Source of the DNA: Candidatus Saccharimonadota bacterium
GTDB taxonomy: Bacteria > Patescibacteriota > Patescibacteriia > 2-12-FULL-60-25
Assembly: GCA_016699205.1 (NCBI GenBank)
Contig: CP064964.1
Coordinates: 300,001 to 332,000 of the forward strand
Direction of reading: 5' to 3'
Length of the DNA: 32,000 nt
The notes beneath the pieces are model-generated. The model searched no databases and was not told the DNA's origin. It saw only the letters and a program-made list of their open reading frames with translations. Position 1 is the first letter of the stretch. Each line of letters opens with the position of its first letter. This document shows positions 3,027-26,270 of this stretch, in pieces. The translations under genes were made by a program, and so were the position numbers.

Positions 3027-3104
3027 GGGTGCGTGGTGTAGCCCGGTTAACACGTCTCCCTGTCACGGAGAAGATCGAGGGTTCGAATCCCTTCGCACCC
3101 GCCA
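3027..3104 (+). tRNA. tRNA-Asp (anticodon GTC), CCA encoded
   Basis: Hand-folded cloverleaf. Acceptor GGGTGCG/CGCACCC; D stem GTGT/ACAC; anticodon stem TCTCC/GGAGA with loop CT-GTC-AC; 5-nt variable loop; T arm GAGGG-TTCGAAT-CCCTT; discriminator G plus CCA. Confidence 0.95.
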
Positions 3105-13005: not shown

Positions 13006-13854
13006 TTAGAGTGTGCAGTCAGGCTTGGAGCATTTACCTTCTCCACGAGGATTGTAGCCGTTCTTGATTTCTGCTCCGTCATCGTAGGTATCGCGGTCGG
13101 TGTCGCGGTTTAGAGGATTCGTGCCATACTTCATGACCTCATCGCCATCACTCGCTCCGTCTACATCTGAATCTGGTTTTGCCGGATCGAGACCAAGCTC
13201 GGTTTCACGACGATCGGATAATCCGTCTCCATCCGCATCAGCTTCTGCCTGCATCGTGGTTGTGGGAACTTCATCGACTGGCGGCGGATCATTGGTAACA
13301 CTGGTCGGAAGAGGGATACTGACGCCGTCTGGAGGAGTTGTGACTGGAGGAAGGATCGGCGTTGGTTCAGGTGTTGGTGTTACGGCTGGCGCAGATGCAG
13401 GTGCGGAAGGAACCGGCGTAGGTGTTGTTGGCTGTGGCGTCGGCGTTGTCGTTGTTGATGGTCGTGTTGGCGGCGTGATCACGGGCGGAGTTACCGGCGT
13501 ACGAATCACGAACCACCAAAAGGCGAATCCCGCACCAGCGACAACAAGCAGAACAACGACGATGATTGCAAAAATTCTTCCGTAAGAAACATGGTGGACG
13601 ATCTCTGGCGCAAGCGGTGCTGACGGACGTGCGCCCATACCAGAACTACCCGGCTTCTCCATGTTGGAGAAAATATCCTCTGGCTCTGCTACGCCCGGCT
13701 TGGGCGCAGGTACTGGAGCAGGAGCGGAAGGCACAATTGGCGGTGCTAAAGGCGGAGCCGTGGGCGGTGTTGGCGGGGGCGGCGGAACAGAAGAGCTAGC
13801 CCGAGCCGGAGGAGGCGTCAGCGGTTCAAATGGAAGATTTGCAGGAGGGTTCAT
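13006..13854 (-). CDS. single-pass membrane protein with Pro-rich tail, Pro/Thr linker and TSP3 calcium-binding repeats
   Basis: About 95 aa of Pro-rich N-terminus. TM helix IFAIIVVVLLVVAGAGFAFWWFVI. PT-rich stalk. DADGDGLSD, DSDVDGASDGDE and DTDRDTYDDGAE repeats. C-terminal NGYNPRGEGKCSKPDC. Confidence 0.75.
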   Translation of the reverse strand: MNPPANLPFEPLTPPPARASSSVPPPPPTPPTAPPLAPPIVPSAPAPVPAPKPGVAEPEDIFSNMEKPGSSGMGARPSAPLAPEIVHHVSYGRIFAIIVVVLLVVAGAGFAFWWFVIRTPVTPPVITPPTRPSTTTTPTPQPTTPTPVPSAPASAPAVTPTPEPTPILPPVTTPPDGVSIPLPTSVTNDPPPVDEVPTTTMQAEADADGDGLSDRRETELGLDPAKPDSDVDGASDGDEVMKYGTNPLNRDTDRDTYDDGAEIKNGYNPRGEGKCSKPDCTL

Positions 13855-13885: not shown

Positions 13886-14626
13886 TCAGGGAATACATGT
13901 CTCGCGAGCGCAGCGGCCTGGACCAAGCGGATTATACCCTGATTGTACCTCGCTACCGTCTTTAAAGGTGTCATTGTCACTGTCGGCACGGAGCGGGTCG
14001 GTTTTATAGGTTTCAACTTCTTGGCGATCCGTGAGTCCGTCTCCATCCGTATCAGCATTGTTTGGATCCGTACCGACATTTCTTTCCTGTTCTATCGTGA
14101 GGCCATCGCCGTCGGCGTCGGGACTTGGAGTTGCTGCCGCTGGCGCCTCGGGCTGAGACGGTGTTGTTGGCGAGGAGGTCACGGATCTCGTTGATGAGAC
14201 CGTAGAGAGACGGCGATTCGTTTCTTCAATTCTCTTTTCCACCGCCCCTGCATCCGCCTGCGTTGGATTTGATTTAAGAACGTTTACTTCTTCCGCGTCA
14301 TTATACCCGTCGCCATCCGTATCCCCTTCTGCCGGGTTAGATCCAAGCTGCGCTTCTTGATCATCGCTCAAGCCGTCACCGTCGGTATCTTTTGGCATTG
14401 CTGCTATGCGCTCAAGCTCCTGTTCTGCCAACCGCGAACGCTCTGCATTCATTTGACCATTTCCAACCGGTACGAGGACCGCAGGACCAGAAGGCGTGTT
14501 GATCGTCGTGATCGGCTGCAGATCCGCGGTAGCTCGGATGCGAAGAAGCACGACAAGAATAATAAGACCGACAACGGCTATGCCGCTGAGGATCGAACCG
14601 ATAATAATGAGTTGTTTTCGTTCCAT
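13886..14626 (-). CDS. single-pass membrane protein with two blocks of TSP3 calcium-binding repeats
   Basis: N-terminal TM helix LIIIGSILSGIAVVGLIILVVLL. DTDGDGLSDDQE, DTDGDGYNDAEE, DADGDGLTIEQE, DTDGDGLTDRQE and DSDNDTFKDGSE repeats. C-terminal SGYNPLGPGRCARETC. Confidence 0.75.
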   Translation of the reverse strand: MERKQLIIIGSILSGIAVVGLIILVVLLRIRATADLQPITTINTPSGPAVLVPVGNGQMNAERSRLAEQELERIAAMPKDTDGDGLSDDQEAQLGSNPAEGDTDGDGYNDAEEVNVLKSNPTQADAGAVEKRIEETNRRLSTVSSTRSVTSSPTTPSQPEAPAAATPSPDADGDGLTIEQERNVGTDPNNADTDGDGLTDRQEVETYKTDPLRADSDNDTFKDGSEVQSGYNPLGPGRCARETCIP

Positions 14627-14629
14627 ACA

Positions 14630-17600
14630 TTAGGATCCTGGGCTTTGAACCGGGCCAGGCAATGGTACGCCTTCCCCTGGGAAGGTGTCTCCGTATTGAT
14701 GAGAACCATTACACAGCAGCAAGCCTCTGCCAGCGCCAGGGATCGTGATAGCTCCGCTACCGGCCTCCTGTGAGAACACGTGCCAATATTTACCCTTGCG
14801 GTCCAGCGGCTCATCCGAACATCCGGCATCGGTCGGAACACTTGTCGGAGGCTTCACAACGAAAAGGCGATCTTCCGTTACGATGCGCACCGTCGTCGAG
14901 ACACTCTCAAAATATTGGTAGGAAGGAATGCTGGGCGTGATGGTCGGGGACCAATCGACCAAATAATATCCGTAGCGGCCGGTTAGCGCCCAAGTTCCAC
15001 GTTTGTACTTAATGGTTTGAGGAGAGACATCAAAGCTGCCGCAGCCTACTGATCCATCACTGTGGAAACAGGCGAGGAAGCCATGTGGGTTTGCGCCATC
15101 AATATCCGGATTTCCTGGGCCGCCATAGTAGATGTCGCGCGTTGGTGCCATCGCCGTAGGCAATGTCACATGCGCATCGGTGAATCCGCCTGGCGGCAAT
15201 TCACCGTTCCATGTCTGGATGACGAGCGTCTCATCGCGGCCAACGCGGGGGGCGAGATAGATTTTGCCCTCCGTGTCATTGATACCGCGCGACAAGAAGT
15301 TATTATATCCGAATGTCTGCGACTCAAATGGCCAGTAACCGCCGTTACGAGCCTCATCTGGAGCTGTCAAACCTGAGGGCCAAATCTGACCTCTACACTC
15401 TGGGCGACCTGATGCATTACCCGTACACGGATTATCCTGATAGTAGTCGACGACGATGCGGTACTGAGAACAGGCTGCGACACGGTTGATGTTGTTGAAT
15501 CTGAATGTTCCGTCTGAGCCTGTATAGGTCTCACCGATGCGAACGCCTCGGCTGTAGAGCGTTACGCGAGCGTTTGGAACTGGCTGGTTGGAGTAGATGG
15601 CGTCGAAAACTTGGGCCGTAATTTCGCCGTCACCCTCTTCCTCGCTGCATCGAGCACAACCGTTGAATCCACAACCCGTATTACAACTTACTTGATCACC
15701 TCGCGGATCATGAGGTGTTGCGCACAAGGTGCCTGGAGCACAAGTGCTCGCGTTAGGCATACAAGCCGCTTCTGCGCCGATCGCAGGGAGCGCAGCGCGC
15801 GTCAAGCTTCCCGGAACCGATTCCGTATCCGTTGTGATGCTGAATCGACACAAACCGATATCAGAGATAGAGGTGGCATTACGGTTTACGCAGACAATTT
15901 CACCCGTTCGCGTGTCTCGAATATACGGATAGTGCGCGCAAGAGACCTCTCTCGCATAGTCGTAGCCGAGCTCGCGACAAGAAGGCGTCGGATCATTTGT
16001 CGTTGCCGGGTCTCCATCAAAGTCTGTGCGATCACACTGTTCAGGACCTTCTTTTACGGCGTTACCGCAGAATCCACCGGAACTAGCAACTTGGCGGCAC
16101 GTTGCGGAACAAGAGAGACAGGTCGATCCGTAGTCGGCATCACATGAGAGCGTGCCGTTTCTTGGGCCATTATCACATTCTTCTGTTCCAACGTTTACAA
16201 AGTTGTCGCCGCAGATATTGCGCTTACACAAGCTCGTGCAAGAATCGGTGTTGTTGCGGTTACCATCATCACACTCCTCTGCCGGATCGACGCGGCCATC
16301 GCCACAGGAACCGATTGGCTGACATGCTGACCAGTCATTGAATGAACAGGCATCGGCTAGAGTGGTATCACTCTTACAGGAACGGACGCGCTGTGTTGGG
16401 TATTGAATACAGGACCCTTCATCGCGTGTCGGAACGGTGAGGAGACAGTCAGCGTTGGTCGTACAGCTGTCGTCGAGCAAGCTATTTCCATTCATGTCGT
16501 TGGAACAAAGTCCAAGTGTTCCGGTACAGGCAAGCAACGCTCCAGCACCAGAGCCGCCACAAGTGAAGCCGGCGCCACAGTCGGCGTTGGTGTCACATGG
16601 CGAGAAGCGATTTGGTCCGTCGATACAGAGGGCTTTATTGGAAGCCTGTGTGTTTCCATCACACTGTTCATTTGGAGCGGTGATCGAGCCATCGCCACAG
16701 TAGGGAGCTGGTCCGCGGCAGTCGATGCTGCACGTTGAAGCCGGCGAACAGGTTCCAGGGGCACAGTACTGGCCGTTGGAAGCACCTTGATCGCAGGATT
16801 CGCCTGGCGAGAGACGACCATCACCGCAGTAGGCATCAAAGCCGGTACAGGTGCGGTTGCAGCGGCCGTAGGTTCCGTTCAAAGCTCCATCGTCACAGGT
16901 TTCTGGGACAGCGAGCGCCGTACAAACGATACTGGAAGATGCGGCATCGCGAGGATCGCGACACTCCTCTGCTGAACCCGGCGTGTTACAAGCTTGGCCA
17001 TAGCGGAAGCCGGCGCCACCCAAACACTGGTTGCGGTCGAGACGGCCGTTTCCACAGAGCGCGTTGGCGACACAGATACTTGAAGGCGAGTCGACGAAAG
17101 ACGTACAGCGATCACAGACTTGGAGCTTGGTTCCGCTTGGAACAGCGGCTGTGGAACAAGCGGCCGGGCGCGTATCGCCTACTTCACAAATTTCACCAGG
17201 ACCGATGACGCCGTTACCACAGATGGAATCGTTGCCGAATGAGCTGCCGTCACACAATCCGCCATATCTCCAGCTACCGCCTGTTGCGACACAGCTACCC
17301 GTTGAAAGCGGAGGGCCGCCAGGACCTGGGACCGTACAGTCGGAATCGACATTACAAACGGAATCGATGTTGGTACAGCGGCGGATTTCCGAAAGAAGGC
17401 GCGGTCGATAGCGGTCAGCAGACGGACCCTCCAATTCCGTGGAAAGCTCATAGCGCTGACCAGCGTTCAATGCGCGGTATTGATAGATGCGGGATACCGA
17501 GTGCTGGTTCAGATCTCCATACAAGGAGCACCGCCCGTTGCACAAATACCACAAGTTAAGAAACGGTTGACCGGATCTGCCGGAGGCGTTGTACCAAGCT

Positions 17601-17632
17601 CGGCGGTGAAGGCGCCCTGCCAGCTCGGCCAA
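14630..17632 (-). CDS. cysteine-rich repeat surface protein, probably the C-terminal part of a split giant gene
   Basis: At least 7 CG[ND]G/CGDN...GE.CD.GN units (for example SCGDGRVDPAEECDDGNRNNTDSC). A CarboxypepD_reg-like module (ARVTLYSRGVRIGETYTGSDGTFRF), then a beta-rich unassigned C-domain. The ORF has no ATG for about 380 codons and no signal peptide, and the tracked 'M' is a TTG inside the preceding ORF. The start is therefore unresolved. Confidence 0.7.
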   Translation of the reverse strand: MAELAGRLHRRAWYNASGRSGQPFLNLWYLCNGRCSLYGDLNQHSVSRIYQYRALNAGQRYELSTELEGPSADRYRPRLLSEIRRCTNIDSVCNVDSDCTVPGPGGPPLSTGSCVATGGSWRYGGLCDGSSFGNDSICGNGVIGPGEICEVGDTRPAACSTAAVPSGTKLQVCDRCTSFVDSPSSICVANALCGNGRLDRNQCLGGAGFRYGQACNTPGSAEECRDPRDAASSSIVCTALAVPETCDDGALNGTYGRCNRTCTGFDAYCGDGRLSPGESCDQGASNGQYCAPGTCSPASTCSIDCRGPAPYCGDGSITAPNEQCDGNTQASNKALCIDGPNRFSPCDTNADCGAGFTCGGSGAGALLACTGTLGLCSNDMNGNSLLDDSCTTNADCLLTVPTRDEGSCIQYPTQRVRSCKSDTTLADACSFNDWSACQPIGSCGDGRVDPAEECDDGNRNNTDSCTSLCKRNICGDNFVNVGTEECDNGPRNGTLSCDADYGSTCLSCSATCRQVASSGGFCGNAVKEGPEQCDRTDFDGDPATTNDPTPSCRELGYDYAREVSCAHYPYIRDTRTGEIVCVNRNATSISDIGLCRFSITTDTESVPGSLTRAALPAIGAEAACMPNASTCAPGTLCATPHDPRGDQVSCNTGCGFNGCARCSEEEGDGEITAQVFDAIYSNQPVPNARVTLYSRGVRIGETYTGSDGTFRFNNINRVAACSQYRIVVDYYQDNPCTGNASGRPECRGQIWPSGLTAPDEARNGGYWPFESQTFGYNNFLSRGINDTEGKIYLAPRVGRDETLVIQTWNGELPPGGFTDAHVTLPTAMAPTRDIYYGGPGNPDIDGANPHGFLACFHSDGSVGCGSFDVSPQTIKYKRGTWALTGRYGYYLVDWSPTITPSIPSYQYFESVSTTVRIVTEDRLFVVKPPTSVPTDAGCSDEPLDRKGKYWHVFSQEAGSGAITIPGAGRGLLLCNGSHQYGDTFPGEGVPLPGPVQSPGS
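16020..17380 (-). repeat. array of Myxococcus-type cysteine-rich repeats (protein level)
   Basis: Read in translation: CGNGVIGPGEICE, CGNGRLDRNQC, CGDGRLSPGESCDQG, CGDGSITAPNEQCDGN, CGDGRVDPAEECDDGN, CGDNFVNVGTEECDNG, CGNAVKEGPEQCD. Confidence 0.7.
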
Positions 17633-20600
17633 CGGCTGTTGCTCATGGTCTGCAAGAAGGAACCGGTCTGAAGATCAGGATATTTGCTTGTGCGTTCTTT
17701 GACGGACTCAAGCGAGTCGCTCATGCGCTGGAAGTCGGCGATGCGCTTGATGTCGCGCTGCATCTTGGTCTTGAAGCTGGCACAGCGGAGATTACGGTTC
17801 TGATTGAGACATTCCCAATCTGCCGTACAGGCAACAGAACGACCATCGGCACCGCGGAATGACTCACCGGCTACACGAGCGCCATCGGCCAAAGCGTAAA
17901 CACAGGCGTTCTGCGAATCTTCTTGCAGGTTTACGTTCAGGACAAAATTCTTGACCATCTGATCAAAAATATCGATCGTTTCTGGCTGTGCGTCCGGATT
18001 GCGGGAGATAACGTAAATATTTGGATAAATATCGCCGGAAGCGAGACCTGTCGTGTTTACAGCGCCGATGTAGACCGTGTTGCCATCTTGAACCGCTTCG
18101 TAACCATCGACCGTGATCGCTTTTGGCGAACCGGAGAAACCCTTGGAGGCGTACCAAGCAGATGGCGACTGGTGAAGTGGGTTGGCAACGATACGGATAC
18201 CGATACCATCGCCGCGGAGAGATGGTTCATTGAAGGTAAAGAGATATTGGCGAAGAATTCCGAGACCAGCGTCAACCGGAGACGGAGCCACACCCGCGAC
18301 ATCCATCGCTGGAAGATCATCCGCTGTACCGGCAGCGTTTTTGTCGCGGCAGTAGAGCGTCGAGAAGTTGTAGTAGACACCGCTTGCGGCAAATGTTGGT
18401 TCGTAGAGAGCAAGCGAATCGGAATCAAGACTGTCCGAGAATGGTGCGACGGTGCGTGCTGGCCACGGATTTTCACACAAAAGCACGGTCGCGAGTTCAC
18501 TGCCGCGAATAATACGATTCGTTGACGACGGAACCGTGATTTCATCGTGCGTGATACGGATGCCTGTTGAGACATACGCCGTACCGTTTTTGTTACGGGC
18601 GGCACCGGTTGCGCGGACAGGATCAGCACCCGGGGTTACACCGAGAATCGTGTCATCGGATGTGTTCCAGAGATCCCAAGTCCAGTCATATTCTGCGACC
18701 GTTGAGAGCGGGACGTTGCGTCCATCCTGCAAAGAAACCGGAACAGCCGTGTATGGATGCTCTTCCGCTGGAGCGACGTACAAGTTTGGATGCTCCGTGC
18801 TTAGATCGCGGACATCGATAGAGGAAACGGTACAGATGTTTGCGCCTGTGCGGAAATTCCACTGGATCGGGCCGTTGGATACGACGCCACGGAAGGTGCG
18901 GACACCATCCCTAACGGCCGGATTATCGAGCAAGTCATTGTCGCCGCGGAAGGTGATGCGGTATTCCGTATTTGGCTTGAGTGCACGCTCAAGCGAGAAC
19001 GTTACGATAGAACCCGTGCTCGTATTACTGGAATCGATGTTGAGGCGGCCGCGCACTTCTCCGACACAGAAGACATCGGCGTTGGCTGGCTGAGCGTTGA
19101 ACATCGAGATGAAATTCACCCAAGCCTTCTGCCACCATGGCAGGCCGGTTGTATCGATCTGCATGACGGTCGTGGTTGTGCCTGCGGGACAGACCGCTGC
19201 TGCGCCAACGATACGTTCAGCCACGACAAAGTTGGCGCGTACCGAACCTTCGTCGAGACGTGTGTTGAAATTAGCGGTGATGAGCGCGTTGCGGCAGATA
19301 CCCGTGCCGGTCGGAAGGGCTGGCGGATATTGCGAAACAACGGTGGGACGAGGGGCGCAGCAGCCGTGATCGTCGAGGCCGGTTCCGGCAGGACAAGATG
19401 ATTCTTGTGTGAATCCACACTGCAAGCCGTACGTTGCATTGCCCGTCTTGTCATCGTAGACAGCGCGGACGGTGGAGAGCATGCGGCCATCGGTATCCGG
19501 TTCACGATCACCAACAATTTCTGCGAGCTGGAGCGCGTCCGGCAAACCATCGCCAGAAGCGACTTCACAAGAGTTGATTTCACCCGGACCCGTGACGCCG
19601 TCGCCGCAGAATGAAGGGGTTCCGTAGTCTGGAGACGAGCCTTCCGCGAGACAGGTTGCGCTACAGCCGTCACCCTGGTTGCGATTGCCGTCGTCACAAT
19701 CCTCCCCTGCTCCGATAGAGCCGTTGCCACAGCAGTTACCAGCACCAGAACCCGAGCATGCTGACGTACCAGTTCTCAAACACGTTGTCGTGTCGCAGCC
19801 AGCCGGGAATACGCCGCCGACGCGGTCACAAGTTTCGCCTGGCTCAACCGTACCGTTACCACAAAGTGCGAGCACAGCTGAAGAACCCTCGTGGAGACAG
19901 ATCGAGCTGCAGCCGTCGCCGTTTGCGGTGTTGCCGTCGTCACAAGCTTCACCATCGCCAATGGAATTGTTTCCACAGGTTGAGCCGCCTTCGCTTGAAC
20001 CAAGAAGCTGACAGTCGCTGAAACAACCAGGCGTGGTTGAGGATGCCGCGCCAGGATCACATTGTTCACCGCGATCAAGAAGACCGTTGCCACAGCTTCC
20101 ACCGACAAGAGGACGCCACAAACAGCTTGAGTTACAGCTTGCGGATGGCGAACCATCATCACACTCTTCTCCGCCTCGTGAACCCGGAGGCAGTAAACGA
20201 CAGGCGTCGCCGTGAATCGTGCGGCAGCCTACAGCGCCAGCGCCCGAAGTCGCACATGCGCCGCTACCGGCTGCGTTGCGGCAGTAGTTGGCATCCGTTG
20301 TTTCAACAACGCGGTTTCCACAAGAAGCGACGCGGCCATCGAGACCAGCGGCTCCGCGCGGTGTGCAGCGATTTGAACAACCCGGACCAATCGCAGGATT
20401 TGTATCAACAAGACCATCGGCGACGGTAGAGCCATCGCCACCGTTTACGAATTTGGACACGGTTGGCGTCTGTTCAATCGACCAAGCAAAGGTGCGATCA
20501 ACGATCAGGGGCTCGCCTTCTGCGTTACACGAGTTGGCGCCGGAACGAGGCGTGGCCGTGAATGACTGACGTTCACCAACGGTTGTCTCGATCTTTTCTC

Positions 20601-23067
20601 CTGGAACCATCACGACAGCCTCGACGGTACAGCGGGCATTGTCGCCATCCTTCACACGGAAAATCCATGAGAAGCCTTCCGGGTCATTCAAGCCGGTGAG
20701 CGGGAGACCGGAGCGAGAGCGGAAGGAACCCATGCCGCCCAAAACCGTCATCTTGTAGAATCGTCCGCGCTGCAAAAGCGTTTCCGGAACGCCACCCGCA
20801 CCCGGACGTGTCGGCTCAATCACGAGATAACGAAGAGATGTATCGCCTGCCGGAGCGCCTGGGAGAGCAGTTAGACGGATCGGTGAAGCGCTCAAATCGA
20901 CGGTATCTTCAAAGGTGCGACAATTTTCATTGGTACACAATCGCAAAATAACATTATCGGTGTCGACGCTAGCCGCATCCATCGGAACGTTGAAGCGAGC
21001 CCAAATTGCTGCGTTCAAACAAGCTTCATCACAATTTGGTCCGTATGACTCGATCTTTGGAGGAACGAGACGGATAAAGAGATCGCCGCGACCATTGACC
21101 GAGCGGCCGCCGGAGACCGTGGATGCGTTTACGCGGACCGGATCAGCGCCGGTTTCTGCGTTGGAAGTGACAACCTGATTTTCTGAGACACGGCCGGCGA
21201 CGGAGTTATTCGTAACAGATGCGCGGCCATCGCTCGTGGTCCAAGACCAGTTGTAGACATCGCCACGCAAGACGATACAGGCATCATCTGCGGCTCGAGG
21301 GACGGCGTTGTAGTCTTGATCGATACCGACATCGTCCATGGTATGAGGTGATGGAACGACGTTGATCGAACCGACTTCACACAATGTTCCGGCCGTACGC
21401 GTTGTAAATGTGAAACAGTAAGCATTGCCGGAGCCACAATCATCCGCGTTCTCTCGCATCGGAACGTTGGTTGATGACTGGATGCCGGTCGTCAAAATAA
21501 CTTGGTACGTCGCGACGCCATCCCAAAGAGCGGCGGAGCGGAAACGAATGAAGCCTTGGCCGTCGCTTTCACCGATTTGCGGATAACCGGCGGCTGGTGA
21601 AACAGGTACGGTCGTCGTACATGGCGTTGCACCACCAGCGGTACATTGACGAATGACGAGGCTGGCTGTCGCACCGGAAATCGTGACGGTTGAAGCATTG
21701 AGCGGCGTGTTGAAACGAATGTAGATATCCGAGTTCACACATGCATTGTCACCACCGGTGCGGCCGGACCATGGGGACGGAGATGGCGGTCTTAAATCAC
21801 TACACTCTTCAATGACTCGCGGGTTAACCGGGAGAATACCGCTTGAAAGACGCCATGCGAACATCGCTGATGGCGAGGAGGCTGGACAAACACCGCTGCT
21901 ATCCGAACAGGCACCGCTGCGGCAGCAAACCGATCCGGCGACGGAACAGATGGAAGCATCTTCATTACAGTTACGAACGGCAAAATTTACCGAGTTTGAT
22001 GATTGGCCGGAGACACTCAAATTCACTTGTCCTGTGATCGCGGCTGTTGGTACGCGCGTGTCGACACGCGATGAGGTCCAATCCCCTGCGGTTACAACGG
22101 ATGGGACGCGCGTAGCGCCAGAGCCCGCGAATGTGACGGTTCCATCACCTCCAAAACGCTCACCGATCAAAGCGACTTCCGTATCAACCGGGCCAGCGAC
22201 CGGAACAATGGCACAAATACCTGGGCGAGGTGTTGCGGTGTTTACGACAAAAGGCAATGTATTGCTGCGAACCGTGTCCTGACGCTCAACCTCGACCTGA
22301 TAGGTTCCAGGCGACATGGCTTCATCGCCAAGACCGGCACGGATGGTGCGTGGAACTTTGACCGTGATCGTCGTATCAGACCAGAACGCGACGGAACAGG
22401 CGGCAGGAAAATCCGTGTCAGCGATCGCGACATCGGATGCGCCACGACGCAAGTACACGCGACCAACGCGTGAACCGAAGTTGCGGCCTTGAATCGTTAC
22501 GTACTCGCTAACAGGACCGTTATCTGGCGAGAGACTGACGATTTCCGGACCAGCCGTGACCGTGCGCTCATTAATACGATACGCAACGCTGTTGGAAAGG
22601 ATTCCGCCAGAACGAGCTGTTACGGCGTAGCTTGCCGGAGAAATAACCGGAGCATTGAGGGCGATACGATCATCAGCCCATGACAAGAAGGAAGAAATTT
22701 CTCGGTCGTTGAAGAAAACGCGATCCGATGAAGCACCGAGACCTGTACCAACGAGATCGGTGCGCTCCCCCGCCAAACCATTATTAGGATCAGCGGCACA
22801 CAAACCTGGGCGAGCAACATCGTTTACATCAAATGGATCGAGGCGCGGACCGCGATCATCGTTGGAAATATCATTTAAACCAGCTGCGTTGATGAGTTGG
22901 ATTGGGCCGTCAACAGCACCATCTGGAACGGCGACAACAACCTGCGTACGGGACCAGGTCGGGATACCGGCGGCGACACAGGCGGCAGGAGCGGTTGCGA
23001 CTTGGCCGTCGGCAAAGATGATCTGGCCGGTTGAGCTACCAAAGTTAGAACCGGAAATCGTTACCAA
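17509..23067 (-). CDS. giant cysteine-rich surface protein (IPT/TIG, SbsA/Big_5-like Ig modules, Cys-rich repeats); coding signal continues upstream to 23154
   Basis: 1852 codons. Four IPT/TIG-like modules (VTISGSNFG, TDLVGTGLG, VTIQGRNFG, VALIGERFG). Ig-like modules with the I.IRFN.P[LM][DN]..[ST]V pattern. Six CG[ND]G..GE.CD units. The tracked start is a TTG in the middle of an IPT module, and no signal peptide is present. Confidence 0.8.
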   Translation of the reverse strand: MVTISGSNFGSSTGQIIFADGQVATAPAACVAAGIPTWSRTQVVVAVPDGAVDGPIQLINAAGLNDISNDDRGPRLDPFDVNDVARPGLCAADPNNGLAGERTDLVGTGLGASSDRVFFNDREISSFLSWADDRIALNAPVISPASYAVTARSGGILSNSVAYRINERTVTAGPEIVSLSPDNGPVSEYVTIQGRNFGSRVGRVYLRRGASDVAIADTDFPAACSVAFWSDTTITVKVPRTIRAGLGDEAMSPGTYQVEVERQDTVRSNTLPFVVNTATPRPGICAIVPVAGPVDTEVALIGERFGGDGTVTFAGSGATRVPSVVTAGDWTSSRVDTRVPTAAITGQVNLSVSGQSSNSVNFAVRNCNEDASICSVAGSVCCRSGACSDSSGVCPASSPSAMFAWRLSSGILPVNPRVIEECSDLRPPSPSPWSGRTGGDNACVNSDIYIRFNTPLNASTVTISGATASLVIRQCTAGGATPCTTTVPVSPAAGYPQIGESDGQGFIRFRSAALWDGVATYQVILTTGIQSSTNVPMRENADDCGSGNAYCFTFTTRTAGTLCEVGSINVVPSPHTMDDVGIDQDYNAVPRAADDACIVLRGDVYNWSWTTSDGRASVTNNSVAGRVSENQVVTSNAETGADPVRVNASTVSGGRSVNGRGDLFIRLVPPKIESYGPNCDEACLNAAIWARFNVPMDAASVDTDNVILRLCTNENCRTFEDTVDLSASPIRLTALPGAPAGDTSLRYLVIEPTRPGAGGVPETLLQRGRFYKMTVLGGMGSFRSRSGLPLTGLNDPEGFSWIFRVKDGDNARCTVEAVVMVPGEKIETTVGERQSFTATPRSGANSCNAEGEPLIVDRTFAWSIEQTPTVSKFVNGGDGSTVADGLVDTNPAIGPGCSNRCTPRGAAGLDGRVASCGNRVVETTDANYCRNAAGSGACATSGAGAVGCRTIHGDACRLLPPGSRGGEECDDGSPSASCNSSCLWRPLVGGSCGNGLLDRGEQCDPGAASSTTPGCFSDCQLLGSSEGGSTCGNNSIGDGEACDDGNTANGDGCSSICLHEGSSAVLALCGNGTVEPGETCDRVGGVFPAGCDTTTCLRTGTSACSGSGAGNCCGNGSIGAGEDCDDGNRNQGDGCSATCLAEGSSPDYGTPSFCGDGVTGPGEINSCEVASGDGLPDALQLAEIVGDREPDTDGRMLSTVRAVYDDKTGNATYGLQCGFTQESSCPAGTGLDDHGCCAPRPTVVSQYPPALPTGTGICRNALITANFNTRLDEGSVRANFVVAERIVGAAAVCPAGTTTTVMQIDTTGLPWWQKAWVNFISMFNAQPANADVFCVGEVRGRLNIDSSNTSTGSIVTFSLERALKPNTEYRITFRGDNDLLDNPAVRDGVRTFRGVVSNGPIQWNFRTGANICTVSSIDVRDLSTEHPNLYVAPAEEHPYTAVPVSLQDGRNVPLSTVAEYDWTWDLWNTSDDTILGVTPGADPVRATGAARNKNGTAYVSTGIRITHDEITVPSSTNRIIRGSELATVLLCENPWPARTVAPFSDSLDSDSLALYEPTFAASGVYYNFSTLYCRDKNAAGTADDLPAMDVAGVAPSPVDAGLGILRQYLFTFNEPSLRGDGIGIRIVANPLHQSPSAWYASKGFSGSPKAITVDGYEAVQDGNTVYIGAVNTTGLASGDIYPNIYVISRNPDAQPETIDIFDQMVKNFVLNVNLQEDSQNACVYALADGARVAGESFRGADGRSVACTADWECLNQNRNLRCASFKTKMQRDIKRIADFQRMSDSLESVKERTSKYPDLQTGSFLQTMSNSRWPSWQGAFTAELGTTPPADPVNRFLTCGICATGGAPCMEI
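19560..20400 (-). repeat. array of Myxococcus-type cysteine-rich repeats (protein level)
   Basis: Read in translation: CGNRVVETTDANYC, CGNGLLDRGEQCDPG, CGNNSIGDGEACDDGNTANGDGC, CGNGTVEPGETCD, CGNGSIGAGEDCDDGNRNQGDGC, FCGDGVTGPGEINSCE. Confidence 0.7.
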
Positions 23068-23154
23068 GGTGCCTGGACGTCCATCTGGAGGCGTGATGCG
23101 GGAAATGATCGGCTGCTCTACACAAACACCACCGGAGCAGACGCCGCTCGCACA

Positions 23155-24375
23155 TTAGGAACCACTAGTACACGCGCCACCGGAACAGGCACCACAGCTT
23201 GCACCTCCGCAGTCGATATCGGTTTCATCTTCATCGCGTGCGCCGTTAAAACAATGGAGAGGGCGAACCATGACGGAAACCGTTGCACTGTCTCCCGTGT
23301 TGGAGTCGATATCATGCGCGGTGGCGCGGAGCGACATTGGACCTGGAGCAATTCCAGCCGTATCCCAGGCGACGTCGGCCGTCATATCGCGCACCGTTGA
23401 AGAGCCCGGAGCCGCACCGATGCCGATGGAATCGCTACCAACAAATGCTTCAATAAATGAAACGCCTGCGTCATCAGAAGCTTGGAGCGAAACGATTACG
23501 AGGTCGTCTGCCGGAACACTCTGTCCATTAAATGGCGAGGTGATTGCTGCTGTTGGGTCTGCCGTATCGACGAGGTTGCCGGTTGTAAAGCGTCCTTCAC
23601 AAACAGGAGAAAAACCTCCACAAGAGATCGTTTGACCAGTTGATGAGCGGAGACCGGAAGCGATCTGTGTAATGAATTCCGTATCGCCATCAAAACAATT
23701 GCGCGTTTCATTTGGAGCGGGACATGCGGCACTAGGAACAAATGTCGCGATTTGACCTGTTACGGTAAGCGTTCCGGCAACAGGTGCCGAGTCGGAAGCG
23801 CGCAAAACACGAATGTTAGCGTTTGCTGTTGTGCTGTCGATGTTACGGGAAAGGATGAAGCGAACTTCAATATTGCGGATCGGTACCGAGCCTCCCGGAG
23901 AAATCGAAACAACCTGGAATGCCGAGGAACCGCCGCCGCCTGGCAAGACACCGCCGCCACCAGGTCCACCGCCGCCTCCTCCCCCACCACCACCGCCCGT
24001 TGCACTCAAAAGTGAATTGATAACGAAGCTTGCAATTGCCCAAGATGACAAAATCAGAACAACGCCGATGATGGCGTTACGAATCATGAGTTTGGCGCGC
24101 TCGACTTGCTCTGCATTACCGCCGCTCGTCATCCACAAAAAGCCTGCATACAAGATGAGGCAGAGCATGATGATCGCCAGCAAGCCAAGTGTCACGTTGA
24201 TGATGCGTGCTGCGATGACACGCGGATCTGTTGCACTCAAACCAATGGTACCGCCGACCTCAGCCAAACCGGCGTCGACTTGGGCATGGACGACGGTTGG
24301 AACAAACGCCATCGACCCAGTCATGAGTGACAGGGTCGTCAGGAAGGCGAGGGCCAAGGAGCGGAGCTTGATCAT
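23155..24375 (-). CDS. VirB2/TrbC-like (CPR 'T4SS pilin'-type) N-domain fused to Ig-like modules and a Cys-rich tail
   Basis: Signal peptide ending VHA/Q. Two hydrophobic helices flank YAGFLWMTSGGNAEQVERAKLMIRNAIIG. A G11-PGGGG hinge, then two Big_5-like modules. Ends HCFNGARDEDETDIDCGGASCGACSGGACTSGS-TAA. ATGA overlap with the upstream paralog. Confidence 0.7.
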   Translation of the reverse strand: MIKLRSLALAFLTTLSLMTGSMAFVPTVVHAQVDAGLAEVGGTIGLSATDPRVIAARIINVTLGLLAIIMLCLILYAGFLWMTSGGNAEQVERAKLMIRNAIIGVVLILSSWAIASFVINSLLSATGGGGGGGGGGGPGGGGVLPGGGGSSAFQVVSISPGGSVPIRNIEVRFILSRNIDSTTANANIRVLRASDSAPVAGTLTVTGQIATFVPSAACPAPNETRNCFDGDTEFITQIASGLRSSTGQTISCGGFSPVCEGRFTTGNLVDTADPTAAITSPFNGQSVPADDLVIVSLQASDDAGVSFIEAFVGSDSIGIGAAPGSSTVRDMTADVAWDTAGIAPGPMSLRATAHDIDSNTGDSATVSVMVRPLHCFNGARDEDETDIDCGGASCGACSGGACTSGS

Positions 24376-26270
24376 GGTGTTGGGGTGAGGTCGGAACAGA
24401 CGCCGCTTTGCGAGACGCCGTCACAGCAATTTGGTTCGCTTGAGTCGGCGGTGCAGCGGTCGGAAGCGGCTGGATTGAAGCAGTTCTGGTAAACGTTCTG
24501 GACGCCGGAGTGAACGATTGGCTGATAGGTCGGCTGAACGGCACCGGGAGCAGTGGAGGAAGCTGGCGAGTAGAGACGGTGGTCAATCGTGAGACGGCCT
24601 TTGGTGGCGATGTCGCCGACCCCTGCTAGCGCACCCGTTTCAGTCAGAGGATCTTGCGAAAGCGACCACCACCAGGTGTCGGCCATGCTTGAAGGTTCGT
24701 TGGTTTGAATCTCGACCGTGTCCGAGTTGACCGTGGATGATTGAAGGACGGAATCAAAGTCAGCTGTTGGATTGCGATCGAGCGGAAGATTGCTTGAATC
24801 GATGAGATCACCGGCAATTGGGTCTGTGGATTCAATACGGGGGGCGGAAAGATTTGGCGCGCCACGTGTACCAAAGGACCAGCCGTAGTTGTCGTTACCC
24901 GGGGTTGAGTCGGCGTCGGAGCCTTGGGCGTCGCCGTCGCCATTACCATCGAGCGCGTTTCCAACCATGTCGGTGATACCGTCGTAACCGGAGCCTGAGA
25001 GGAAGGCTTGCGGGGGCGTGTCGGACAATGTTGGCGCTCTCGCGATCACGGCGATCGAGGCGTCCGTTGGCAAACAATAAACCGTACTGCCGCAGGAGTT
25101 GGTTCCACAAGCGAGATCGGTTGTAAATTCTACGGTGCGGTAGCCATTGCTAATCCGGAATTCACCGGAAGGGCGCACCTCTGGACCGGATGCAGGAGTC
25201 GCGTTGACCTCGATATTGGTAAAGCCTGCGGTACCGTTCCATACACCGGCAGCGGCGGTTGGATCGACAGGTTCATTGAAATTGATTTGAACGACGATGT
25301 TTGGCGCAAATGTACCGCCATCGGAAGGAATAACAGCCGTGATACGCGGCGGAGTGTTATCGACAACGGTTGAGACCTGGAATTGCCAACGATAGCCGCC
25401 GGAGAAGGCACCGCCAAAAGCCTGCGTACCGTCAGCAAGAACGATGCCGGAGCTTCCGCCGAGCAACTCGACGGTGTAGTCGGTGTTGCTGGTTGGGTTG
25501 CCCAGCAACTCAACAGGACGAATGACAAACGTTTTGCGGTCTGGGGTAAAACGGACGCTTGCCTGAGCCGAGGTCAGAGCCGTGCTGCGATCACTCGTGG
25601 GATAGATCTTGATCGCGTCGTCGTTTAGGCCGTTGATTGTGCCGGAAGTCGCCTCGGTCCAGTCCTTGATGAAGGAGTCGACGCGAATCGGTTCCTTAAA
25701 AGTGACAACGATCGGCGTGTTACGCGGAACGCCGGTTGCATCGCGCTGTGGAAGATGTGTCTCGATGATGCCGCTACCAAGAGAACCAGCAGAACCCGGA
25801 AAGCCAAAGCCACCGCCGCCAAACGGACCGGTACCTGTACCGCCGAAACCGGTAACACCAGCGAGCTGAGCAAGAATAAAGTTTACGATTGCGAAGGAGG
25901 ACGCAATAATGATCAACCCGATGATCGCATTACGGATGTAAGATTTTGCTTGTTCAATTTTTGCCGAATCGCCGCCAGACGTCATCCAAAGGTAACCTGC
26001 GTAGAGCAAGAGACCGAGGAGAATGATGCCGACAAAGCCGAGCGCGACATTAATGATGCGGCCGATGATGGTAAAAAGATCTGCTCCCCCACCGATACCG
26101 GCCTGGGTTCCGATGACTTCAAGATTCTCTTGCGAGGTTTGTGCAAAAACCGGAAGAACGAATGACAAGCCAAGCAGGGCGACAAACGTAAAAACCGCCA
26201 TCGACAAAAGCGGTCGCACGGCAGTTAACCGTTGTTTCAAAGTCCTTACACGGGATCCGTTCTCAAGCAT
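24372..26270 (-). CDS. VirB2/TrbC-like (CPR 'T4SS pilin'-type) N-domain fused to about three Ig-like modules
   Basis: Signal peptide ending VFA/Q. Helices flank YAGYLWMTSGGDSAKIEQAKSYIRNAIIG. Gly-rich hinge GFGGTGTGPFGGGGFGFPG. Big_5-like modules (PRNTPIVVTFKEPIRVDS..., IVVQINFNEPVDPT...). Cys-rich C-terminus. The start is ATG 26270 or ATG 26201. Confidence 0.7.
   Translation of the reverse strand: MLENGSRVRTLKQRLTAVRPLLSMAVFTFVALLGLSFVLPVFAQTSQENLEVIGTQAGIGGGADLFTIIGRIINVALGFVGIILLGLLLYAGYLWMTSGGDSAKIEQAKSYIRNAIIGLIIIASSFAIVNFILAQLAGVTGFGGTGTGPFGGGGFGFPGSAGSLGSGIIETHLPQRDATGVPRNTPIVVTFKEPIRVDSFIKDWTEATSGTINGLNDDAIKIYPTSDRSTALTSAQASVRFTPDRKTFVIRPVELLGNPTSNTDYTVELLGGSSGIVLADGTQAFGGAFSGGYRWQFQVSTVVDNTPPRITAVIPSDGGTFAPNIVVQINFNEPVDPTAAAGVWNGTAGFTNIEVNATPASGPEVRPSGEFRISNGYRTVEFTTDLACGTNSCGSTVYCLPTDASIAVIARAPTLSDTPPQAFLSGSGYDGITDMVGNALDGNGDGDAQGSDADSTPGNDNYGWSFGTRGAPNLSAPRIESTDPIAGDLIDSSNLPLDRNPTADFDSVLQSSTVNSDTVEIQTNEPSSMADTWWWSLSQDPLTETGALAGVGDIATKGRLTIDHRLYSPASSTAPGAVQPTYQPIVHSGVQNVYQNCFNPAASDRCTADSSEPNCCDGVSQSGVCSDLTPTP

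Follow-up and report, generated by a model that had tools for sequence, protein, structure and literature searches.

In a 32,000-nucleotide (nt) stretch of Candidatus Saccharimonadota DNA (contig CP064964.1, positions 300,001 to 332,000; hereafter the window), a lone in-frame TAA separates a 406-codon open reading frame (ORF) with a pilin-like head from an ORF of 1852 amino acids (aa) that continues in the same frame. This raises the question of whether the window holds two genes, one gene translated through its stop, one gene that was recently broken, or one gene that was wrongly assembled. We found that these two ORFs, together with a third of 1000 aa further downstream, are almost certainly pieces of one giant cell-surface protein gene of a Candidatus Uhrbacteria-like Patescibacteria bacterium, which lies on the minus strand at 24375..14630. 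The gene would ancestrally have had ~3,290 codons, 3,247 of which are left in the window, and it carries two breaks, the TAA at codon 407 and a deletion at codon 2286. Based on the evidence set out below, we consider it likely that the window carries a nascent pseudogene, or a null variant that segregates in a population of mixed strains, and that the stop codon is of an ordinary kind with no recoding involved.

The 406-codon ORF starts with ATG and occupies 24375..23158 (all coordinates within the giant gene are on the minus strand), and its terminator is the TAA at 23157..23155. The 29 codons that follow (codons 408-436, 23154..23068), which read CASGVCSGGVCVEQPIISRITPPDGRPGT, contain neither a stop nor an ATG, GTG or TTG, and lead in an identical frame into the 1852-aa ORF, which extends from TTG 23067..23065 to 17509. 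On rechecking, all positions and peptides, the common frame and the open stretch devoid of a start codon proved to be as the original prediction had given them. The openness of the 29 codons is not significant alone, having a chance probability estimated at ~0.3 for a G+C content of ~55%, and the question is therefore decided by homology and selection.

Homologues were obtained from a word-indexed protein search with a junction-spanning query (P0001, P0002, P0004 and P0006) and from genome and metagenome scans (among others, the loci L002 to L008, L082 and L083). In addition, an exhaustive search with the 406-aa stub returned 21,171 relatives at E <= 1e-3, with 390 at E <= 1e-30, and the best 150 were examined. 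All homologues examined are continuous through the TAA site and have a sense codon there. In the closest relative, the contig L086 (JGI 3300048074), which is 96-97% identical to the window at the nucleotide level in an alignment that is gapless apart from one deletion, this codon is GAG (L086:1750-1752) and the frame stays open for 1,931 codons, up to the contig end. It is GAA in L082 (~77% nucleotide identity to the window) and encodes Glu in P0001 (85% aa identity), while more distant members have ATG (L085), Asp (L083 and P0002/L001, with 52% identity for P0002) or Gln (P0004 and P0006, ~32% identity); the frame is likewise open across the site in L003 to L008. TAA is one G-to-T step from the GAA of L082 and two steps from the GAG of L086. 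By these comparisons, the TAA is specific to the window haplotype.

The stub aligns to residues 1 to ~406 of the best 150 representatives, which are mostly 2,000-4,600 aa long (82 of the 150 have at least 2,900 aa; median 3,313) and among which full-length forms of ~3,000-3,700 aa predominate. The gene is a single intact ORF of 3285 codons in L002, a Candidatus Uhrbacteria locus, and of 3489 codons in L083. The top match of the exhaustive search, P0012, is an intact protein of 3284 aa encoded on L085, a 29.9-kb JGI contig that is syntenic with essentially the whole window (~27 kb). The order that the two share runs from an EVE-domain protein, signal peptidase, HisRS, YqeY, a 632-aa pilin-like paralogue and the giant gene to a TSP3-repeat protein, an fn3 protein, YbeY, DAGK, FtsA, FtsZ, NrdR, HtrA and pyruvate kinase. 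None of the more than 150 homologues has a gene boundary at the TAA site. Alignment with orthologous loci, which the original prediction had proposed as a check, accordingly came out in its favour, with relatives uniformly sense at the site and none terminating there.

Short family members that could have represented natural ends near codon 406 (P0086, P0041, P0110, P0073, P0139 and P0025) were rejected, as they proved to be contig-end fragments or to bear spurious sequence at their ends, such as the junk peptide of P0086 and the out-of-frame tails of P0041 and P0110. We likewise set aside P0003/L084 as a further broken orthologue, since both ends of this 2.7-kb scaffold are unrelated or out of frame, Kelch-like repeats lie in a different frame, and the scaffold is likely to be chimeric. 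The junk-tailed short members and the chimeric-looking L084 show that the giant gene is frequently mis-assembled or mis-called in public protein sets. Exact-sequence look-ups of the 406-aa product and of P0001 gave no record in the collections searched.

Might the window nonetheless encode two separate genes, one for a short pilin-like protein and another for a large protein that starts, or re-initiates, at TTG 23067? This TTG lies only 29 codons past the stop, and its want of a Shine-Dalgarno sequence proves nothing. No Shine-Dalgarno-like motif was found upstream of ~15 minus-strand gene starts in the window, those of FtsZ, FtsA and HtrA among them, and several genes overlap by 4 nt, which suggests that translation initiation here may be independent of such pairing; the absence of the motif at TTG 23067 is uninformative because no window gene has one. 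The domain content, however, speaks for continuity. TTG 23067 falls inside the first IPT/TIG domain, where it encodes an internal Leu, and the closest homologues have Leu or Phe at this position. A protein starting there loses positions 1-18 of the TIG profile (PF01833), matching only positions 19-68 with 19.3 bits, under the 20.9-bit cut-off, whereas addition of the 29 codons extends the match to positions 1-68 and raises it to 36.5 bits. The 29 codons thus complete the domain by supplying its first strand, as had been predicted. The downstream ORF also lacks a signal peptide, in agreement with the original prediction and as judged by direct reading of the sequence only, despite its Cys-rich, extracellular domain types, and no homologue has a boundary here. 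We regard two separate genes as the least credible of the readings considered, scarcely worth retaining.

The same 29 codons had been predicted to extend the Cys-rich linker that precedes the stop, and this was borne out. The TAA cuts an eight-Cys module (23122..23253, residues 375-418) between its fifth and sixth Cys: C375, C389, C394, C397 and C402 lie before the stop, and C408, C413 and C418, three of the eight, lie in the open stretch. Five homologues were compared, and the eight Cys are invariant among them. Close to the TAA we found just one repeat, a 24-nt direct repeat, 75% identical, which mirrors the two GxCSGGxC motifs.

Selection on the reading frame was assessed from dN/dS (omega) by the Nei-Gojobori method. 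Compared with L082, for which dS is ~1.35-1.4 and near saturation, omega was 0.077 upstream, 0.04 in the 29 codons (14 synonymous and 3 nonsynonymous differences) and 0.058 downstream. The comparison with L086 is far more sensitive. Here the 29 codons show 10 synonymous differences and 1 nonsynonymous, and codons 408-2108 (1,701 codons) show 184 and 15, respectively, with a dS of 0.158 and an omega of 0.025; the upstream segments gave 0.026-0.041 and the neighbouring 632-aa paralogue 0.034. The 29 codons are therefore conserved at the protein level, a point on which the original prediction had made its single-gene proposal depend. With L085 as the outgroup, we counted eight unique replacements in the window (six downstream of the TAA) and six in L086 (five downstream) over the stretch shared with L086, most of them conservative. 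In this stretch no relaxed selection on the disabled part and no excess of window-specific replacements were detected, and a second analysis agreed on the latter. These values indicate that the frame was strongly constrained until very recently, nearly all of the divergence having built up under that constraint. Since dS is ~0.16, omega is 0.025 and there is no excess of replacements, both breaks must be very recent, polymorphic or artefactual.

The second break lies near 17520. At the junction (17516..17523, ...CCT TGT ATG GA|G ATC TGA...) two bases in the window take the place of 41 codons of L085 (DAADCPAGDTCKTRPGDVYNGIETSTCWNPTSRNFVCPRLN), the segments compared being 26 nt and 147 nt long, respectively, and this 121-nt deletion at codon 2286 is out of frame, so that the former frame runs into TGA 17511..17509 past the junction. 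What was deleted is a conserved four-Cys segment with the pattern C.D..[ED]C...G..C...[DE]P[AS]TCW......[FY].CP, located between '...PC' and 'SR[VIF]YQYR'. L001, L002, L083, P0009, P0010 and P0012 are continuous at this point, and the segment is conserved in five homologues. The word-indexed protein search yielded only homologues of ~50% identity at the second break, P0012/L085 having been found through the exhaustive search of representatives. By tblastx, orthologues keep one frame throughout the gene, whereas the window switches frame at about 17515/17497.

Downstream of the junction, the C-terminal 962 codons (14630..17518) continue in the other frame to the true stop of the gene, TAA 14632..14630. 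The listed 1000-aa ORF (17632..14630), which starts at TTG 17632, overlaps the 1852-aa ORF by 124 nt and has no signal peptide. Over its first ~38 codons (17632..17519) it reads conserved coding sequence in the wrong frame, and TTG 17632 is spurious; the remainder aligns as the C-terminal third of the giant gene, which is how we interpret this ORF. The original prediction of one gene was therefore correct as to a single ancestral gene, given the continuous homologues and the equal purifying selection on both sides of the TAA, and too short as to its length, which it had put at 2288 codons. An ancestral length of ~3,290 codons agrees with L085 (3284), L002 (3285) and the family median. Right after the deleted segment, at ~17440-17490 and in the homologues, we observed a conserved motif, SR[VIF]YQYR..[NDG][AG]G..YEL.T[EQ][LF]E, which we take to resemble core strands of type IV pilin or pseudopilin-like domains.

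A preserved downstream frame with no start codon in the first 29 codons would also be expected if the stop were subject to programmed readthrough or local UAA recoding and the full-length protein were still made. One orthologue offers a parallel: L001 (GCA_964443265.1), from a different species and ~50% identical, also has a lone in-frame TAA. That stop, however, lies elsewhere (L001:3817-3819, ~610 codons from the window's stop site), at a position where L002, L083 and P0003 have Gln and the window has Ile, and the close relatives are all sense at the window's own site. Furthermore, TAA terminates at least seven other window genes, counting the true end of the giant gene, and each of the three stop codons is used, which rules out a global reassignment of TAA. 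No stimulatory RNA structure was found in the 121 nt around and after the TAA, which fold at -33.5 kcal/mol as compared to a shuffle mean of -34.2 (z = 0.19). The stop context is UAA-U, a strong terminator in E. coli. The window contains no suppressor tRNA gene, its only tRNA being a tRNA-Asp (GTC) at 3027-3104 of the plus strand. Moreover, a ribosome passing the TAA would be led out of frame at codon 2286 by the deletion there. We consider readthrough or recoding very improbable, in line with the original prediction, which had held readthrough unlikely for TAA: the stop is not conserved, TAA is a normal terminator here and no RNA structure lies downstream.

The window is not the only disrupted copy of the gene. 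L086 lacks the equivalent of window positions 23979..23841, a 139-nt, out-of-frame deletion (at L086:1066) in the Gly-rich linker/first immunoglobulin (Ig)-like region, and its called product, P0102, is out of frame after residue ~133 and truncated to 246 aa. L001 is open for more than 3,008 codons apart from its TAA, and the gene caller splits it into genes of 1016 aa and 1969 aa. Altogether, we counted four lesions, which fall in three of the contigs examined (two in the window, one in L086 and one in L001), most homologues being intact. Independent and very recent lesions in the window, L086 and L001, in a gene under strong long-term purifying selection, could point to a selected on/off polymorphism in which null alleles are repeatedly favoured, for example as an escape from phage or host defence, and in which cells carry either the stub or the full adhesin. 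In episymbiotic Patescibacteria, selection could then recurrently favour cells that for a time do without a protein serving in host contact or as a phage receptor, producing a mutation-driven on/off polymorphism of their largest surface protein that leaves a short anchored stub. Yet a 10-kb gene is a large mutational target in which a few nulls are expected even without selection, and most homologues are intact.

There is also no reversible mechanism at the site, in the form of a repeat tract or an invertible element. Neither lesion in the window is associated with a homopolymer, short tandem repeat or inverted repeat. At the junction of the deletion there is likewise no simple repeat, and the sole short motif that recurs is GAT, present as a codon at both boundaries in L085. 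The original prediction had offered nonsense mutation, polymorphism and consensus error as explanations, all of which stay viable, together with an on/off switch, which, as there is no mutable repeat at the TAA, could amount only to ordinary mutation and selection and not to a programmed switch. On this balance, a selected polymorphism appears doubtful to us, and we put forward the more specific proposal of recurrent selection in episymbionts just as tentatively.

How far can the two breaks be trusted as features of the organism? Over 18047-25045, the window and L086 show a mosaic of identity levels, in which tracts at 100% stand beside 150-nt tracts at 86-90%; the tract 20091..19342, for example, has a single difference, while the TAA sits in a tract at 90%. 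This pattern suggests homologous recombination among co-existing strains, or else a strain-mixed consensus. Several points weigh against a broken gene as the true state of the locus. With strain mixing, the metagenome consensus could include a minority variant or be chimeric. The lesions come from the assembled sequence, which may differ from the true or majority state of the organism. The low dN/dS downstream of the TAA, as low as that upstream, is equally expected of an intact gene with artefactual lesions. Finally, translation may re-initiate at the TTG that follows the stop after 29 codons.

The mosaic identity and the low dN/dS are also what an assembly or consensus artefact would predict, in which the gene is intact and the TAA, the deletion or both stem from a minority variant, a chimeric strain join or an assembler error; that public short homologues often end artefactually (P0086, P0041, P0110 and the chimeric-looking L084) is in keeping with it. 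On the other hand, two lesions of different kinds fall in one gene, whereas the housekeeping genes around it are unaffected, HisRS, FtsA, FtsZ, HtrA and pyruvate kinase all being full-length in the window. Consensus substitution errors are uncommon, neither lesion is of a typical assembler kind, and no homopolymer or repeat is present at either of them to account for a slip. Analogous but different lesions in contigs from other samples are, in addition, more easily explained by biology than by repeated errors. We therefore regard an artefact as unlikely, if the most serious of the alternatives, and believe that both lesions are probably real in the sampled organism.

Taking the lesions as real, a nascent pseudogene or segregating null variant accounts well for the findings. 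As in pseudogenes generally, disabling lesions can be identified, and intact syntenic orthologues (L085, L002 and L083) span the fragments in one frame; relaxed selection, a further mark of pseudogenes, was not seen (omega 0.025 downstream vs 0.026-0.041 upstream). The allele would have arisen by conversion of a Glu codon to TAA at codon 407 and by the 121-nt, out-of-frame deletion at codon 2286. Translation from the sole credible start would then end at codon 406. The product would be an exported, membrane-anchored stub of 406 aa (23158..24375) that comprises two Ig-like domains and a truncated Cys module left with an odd number of Cys. No other part of the giant protein could now be both produced and exported. 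The remaining ~2,840 codons would be silent or, if re-initiated, would give cytoplasmic and non-functional protein, because there is no start next to the stop and no signal peptide. Given that a very large surface-protein gene presents a large mutational target, the window may hold a transient loss-of-function allele that is either neutral or favoured.

The domain layout is that of an exported, repetitive surface protein. The 406-aa ORF begins with a Sec-type signal peptide (...VHA|Q), recognised by direct reading and spanning residues 1 to ~31, followed at residues 63-118 (24189..24022) by a match to T4SS_pilin (PF18895, VirB2-like) of 31.1 bits against a cut-off of 26.6. A Gly-rich linker follows the VirB2-like head and leads to Big_5-like and Big_7 Ig-like domains, the latter (PF17957) at residues 274-350 (23556..23326) with 33.4 bits. 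Codons 437-2285 (17521..23067), in the same frame as the upstream part, encode IPT/TIG repeats, Big_5 and Cys-rich repeats of the DUF4215 type, and TIG in the downstream ORF totals 71.9 bits over two stretches, above the gathering score.

Immediately upstream lies the 632-aa paralogue (24372..26270, minus strand), which has a T4SS_pilin head of its own (34.9 bits) and Big_5, and whose stop overlaps the ATG of the giant gene (ATGA). This tandem pair headed by T4SS_pilin is conserved in L085, L082, L002, L083 and L001. Directly after the giant gene, two genes (13886-14626 and 13006-13854, both on the minus strand) encode small proteins with bacterial TSP3 (thrombospondin type 3-like, Ca-binding) repeats, each with an N-terminal or internal transmembrane segment and a conserved C-terminus that contains Cys. 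L085 also has a TSP3-repeat gene 3' of its giant gene, and similar sequence occurs at this place in L002 and L083. From this arrangement, the TSP3 proteins may be functional partners of the giant protein.

For annotation, these results mean that the 406-, 1852- and 1000-aa calls should be merged into one disrupted gene of ~3,290 codons, and that the downstream pieces should not be regarded as independent cytoplasmic proteins. The gene is probably the largest of a small genome. It belongs to a large uncharacterised family of Patescibacteria surface proteins headed by a VirB2-like domain, a family that is plausibly part of the contact between episymbiont and host. The occurrence of several natural nulls against a background of strong constraint hints that loss of the protein is sometimes tolerated or favoured. 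Giant genes in metagenomes are often obscured by assembly fragmentation, as stated in a preprint on such genes (bioRxiv 10.1101/2023.11.21.568195), which is silent on stop codons, frameshifts and pseudogenes; our literature search found no report of in-frame stops in genes of this type.

How does this gene compare with known systems? VirB2-like pilin genes have been described in 1,948 Patescibacteria assemblies, as small proteins encoded in tandem arrays of 2-11 pilin genes that typically, though not obligatorily, adjoin virB4 and other type IV secretion system (T4SS) genes (PMC12102498). The heads of the giant protein and of its 632-aa paralogue resemble these in exceeding the PF18895 cut-off, whereas here the pilin-like part makes up only the first ~120 residues of ~3,290 aa. 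No other T4SS family was found in Pfam scans of the window's larger ORFs, which matched housekeeping and repeat-protein families, or in the Pfam matches on record for L085. To judge from the sequence, the VirB2-like head could either form a pilus or be a mere membrane anchor. Giant Ig-repeat adhesins such as SiiE of Salmonella (PMC6272769) and an adhesin of Mobiluncus (PMC10619420) share the general plan of a multi-thousand-residue extracellular array of Ig-like/TIG domains, and the likeness extends to this plan only. The window protein combines a Sec signal with a VirB2-like head, in contrast to a substrate of a type I secretion system or a sortase-anchored protein, and disulfide-rich modules are prominent in it.

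As for the breaks themselves, programmed readthrough and stop codon reassignment also present a single in-frame stop with a conserved frame beyond, whereas the stop in the window is not conserved, UAA is a normal terminator and neither a stimulatory structure nor a suppressor tRNA accompanies it. Repeat-mediated phase-variable genes resemble the locus in that a surface-protein gene is 'on' in some close relatives and 'off' in others; the locus differs from them in having no repeat at its lesions. These comprise a substitution and large deletions, of which at least the latter would not easily revert. Ordinary split-gene pseudogenes share the point mutation and the out-of-frame deletion set against intact syntenic orthologues, and the window gene departs from them in showing no relaxed selection yet (omega 0.025). 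The stop codon therefore represents no new mechanism, and the one aspect that is less ordinary is that fresh null alleles recur within this gene family.

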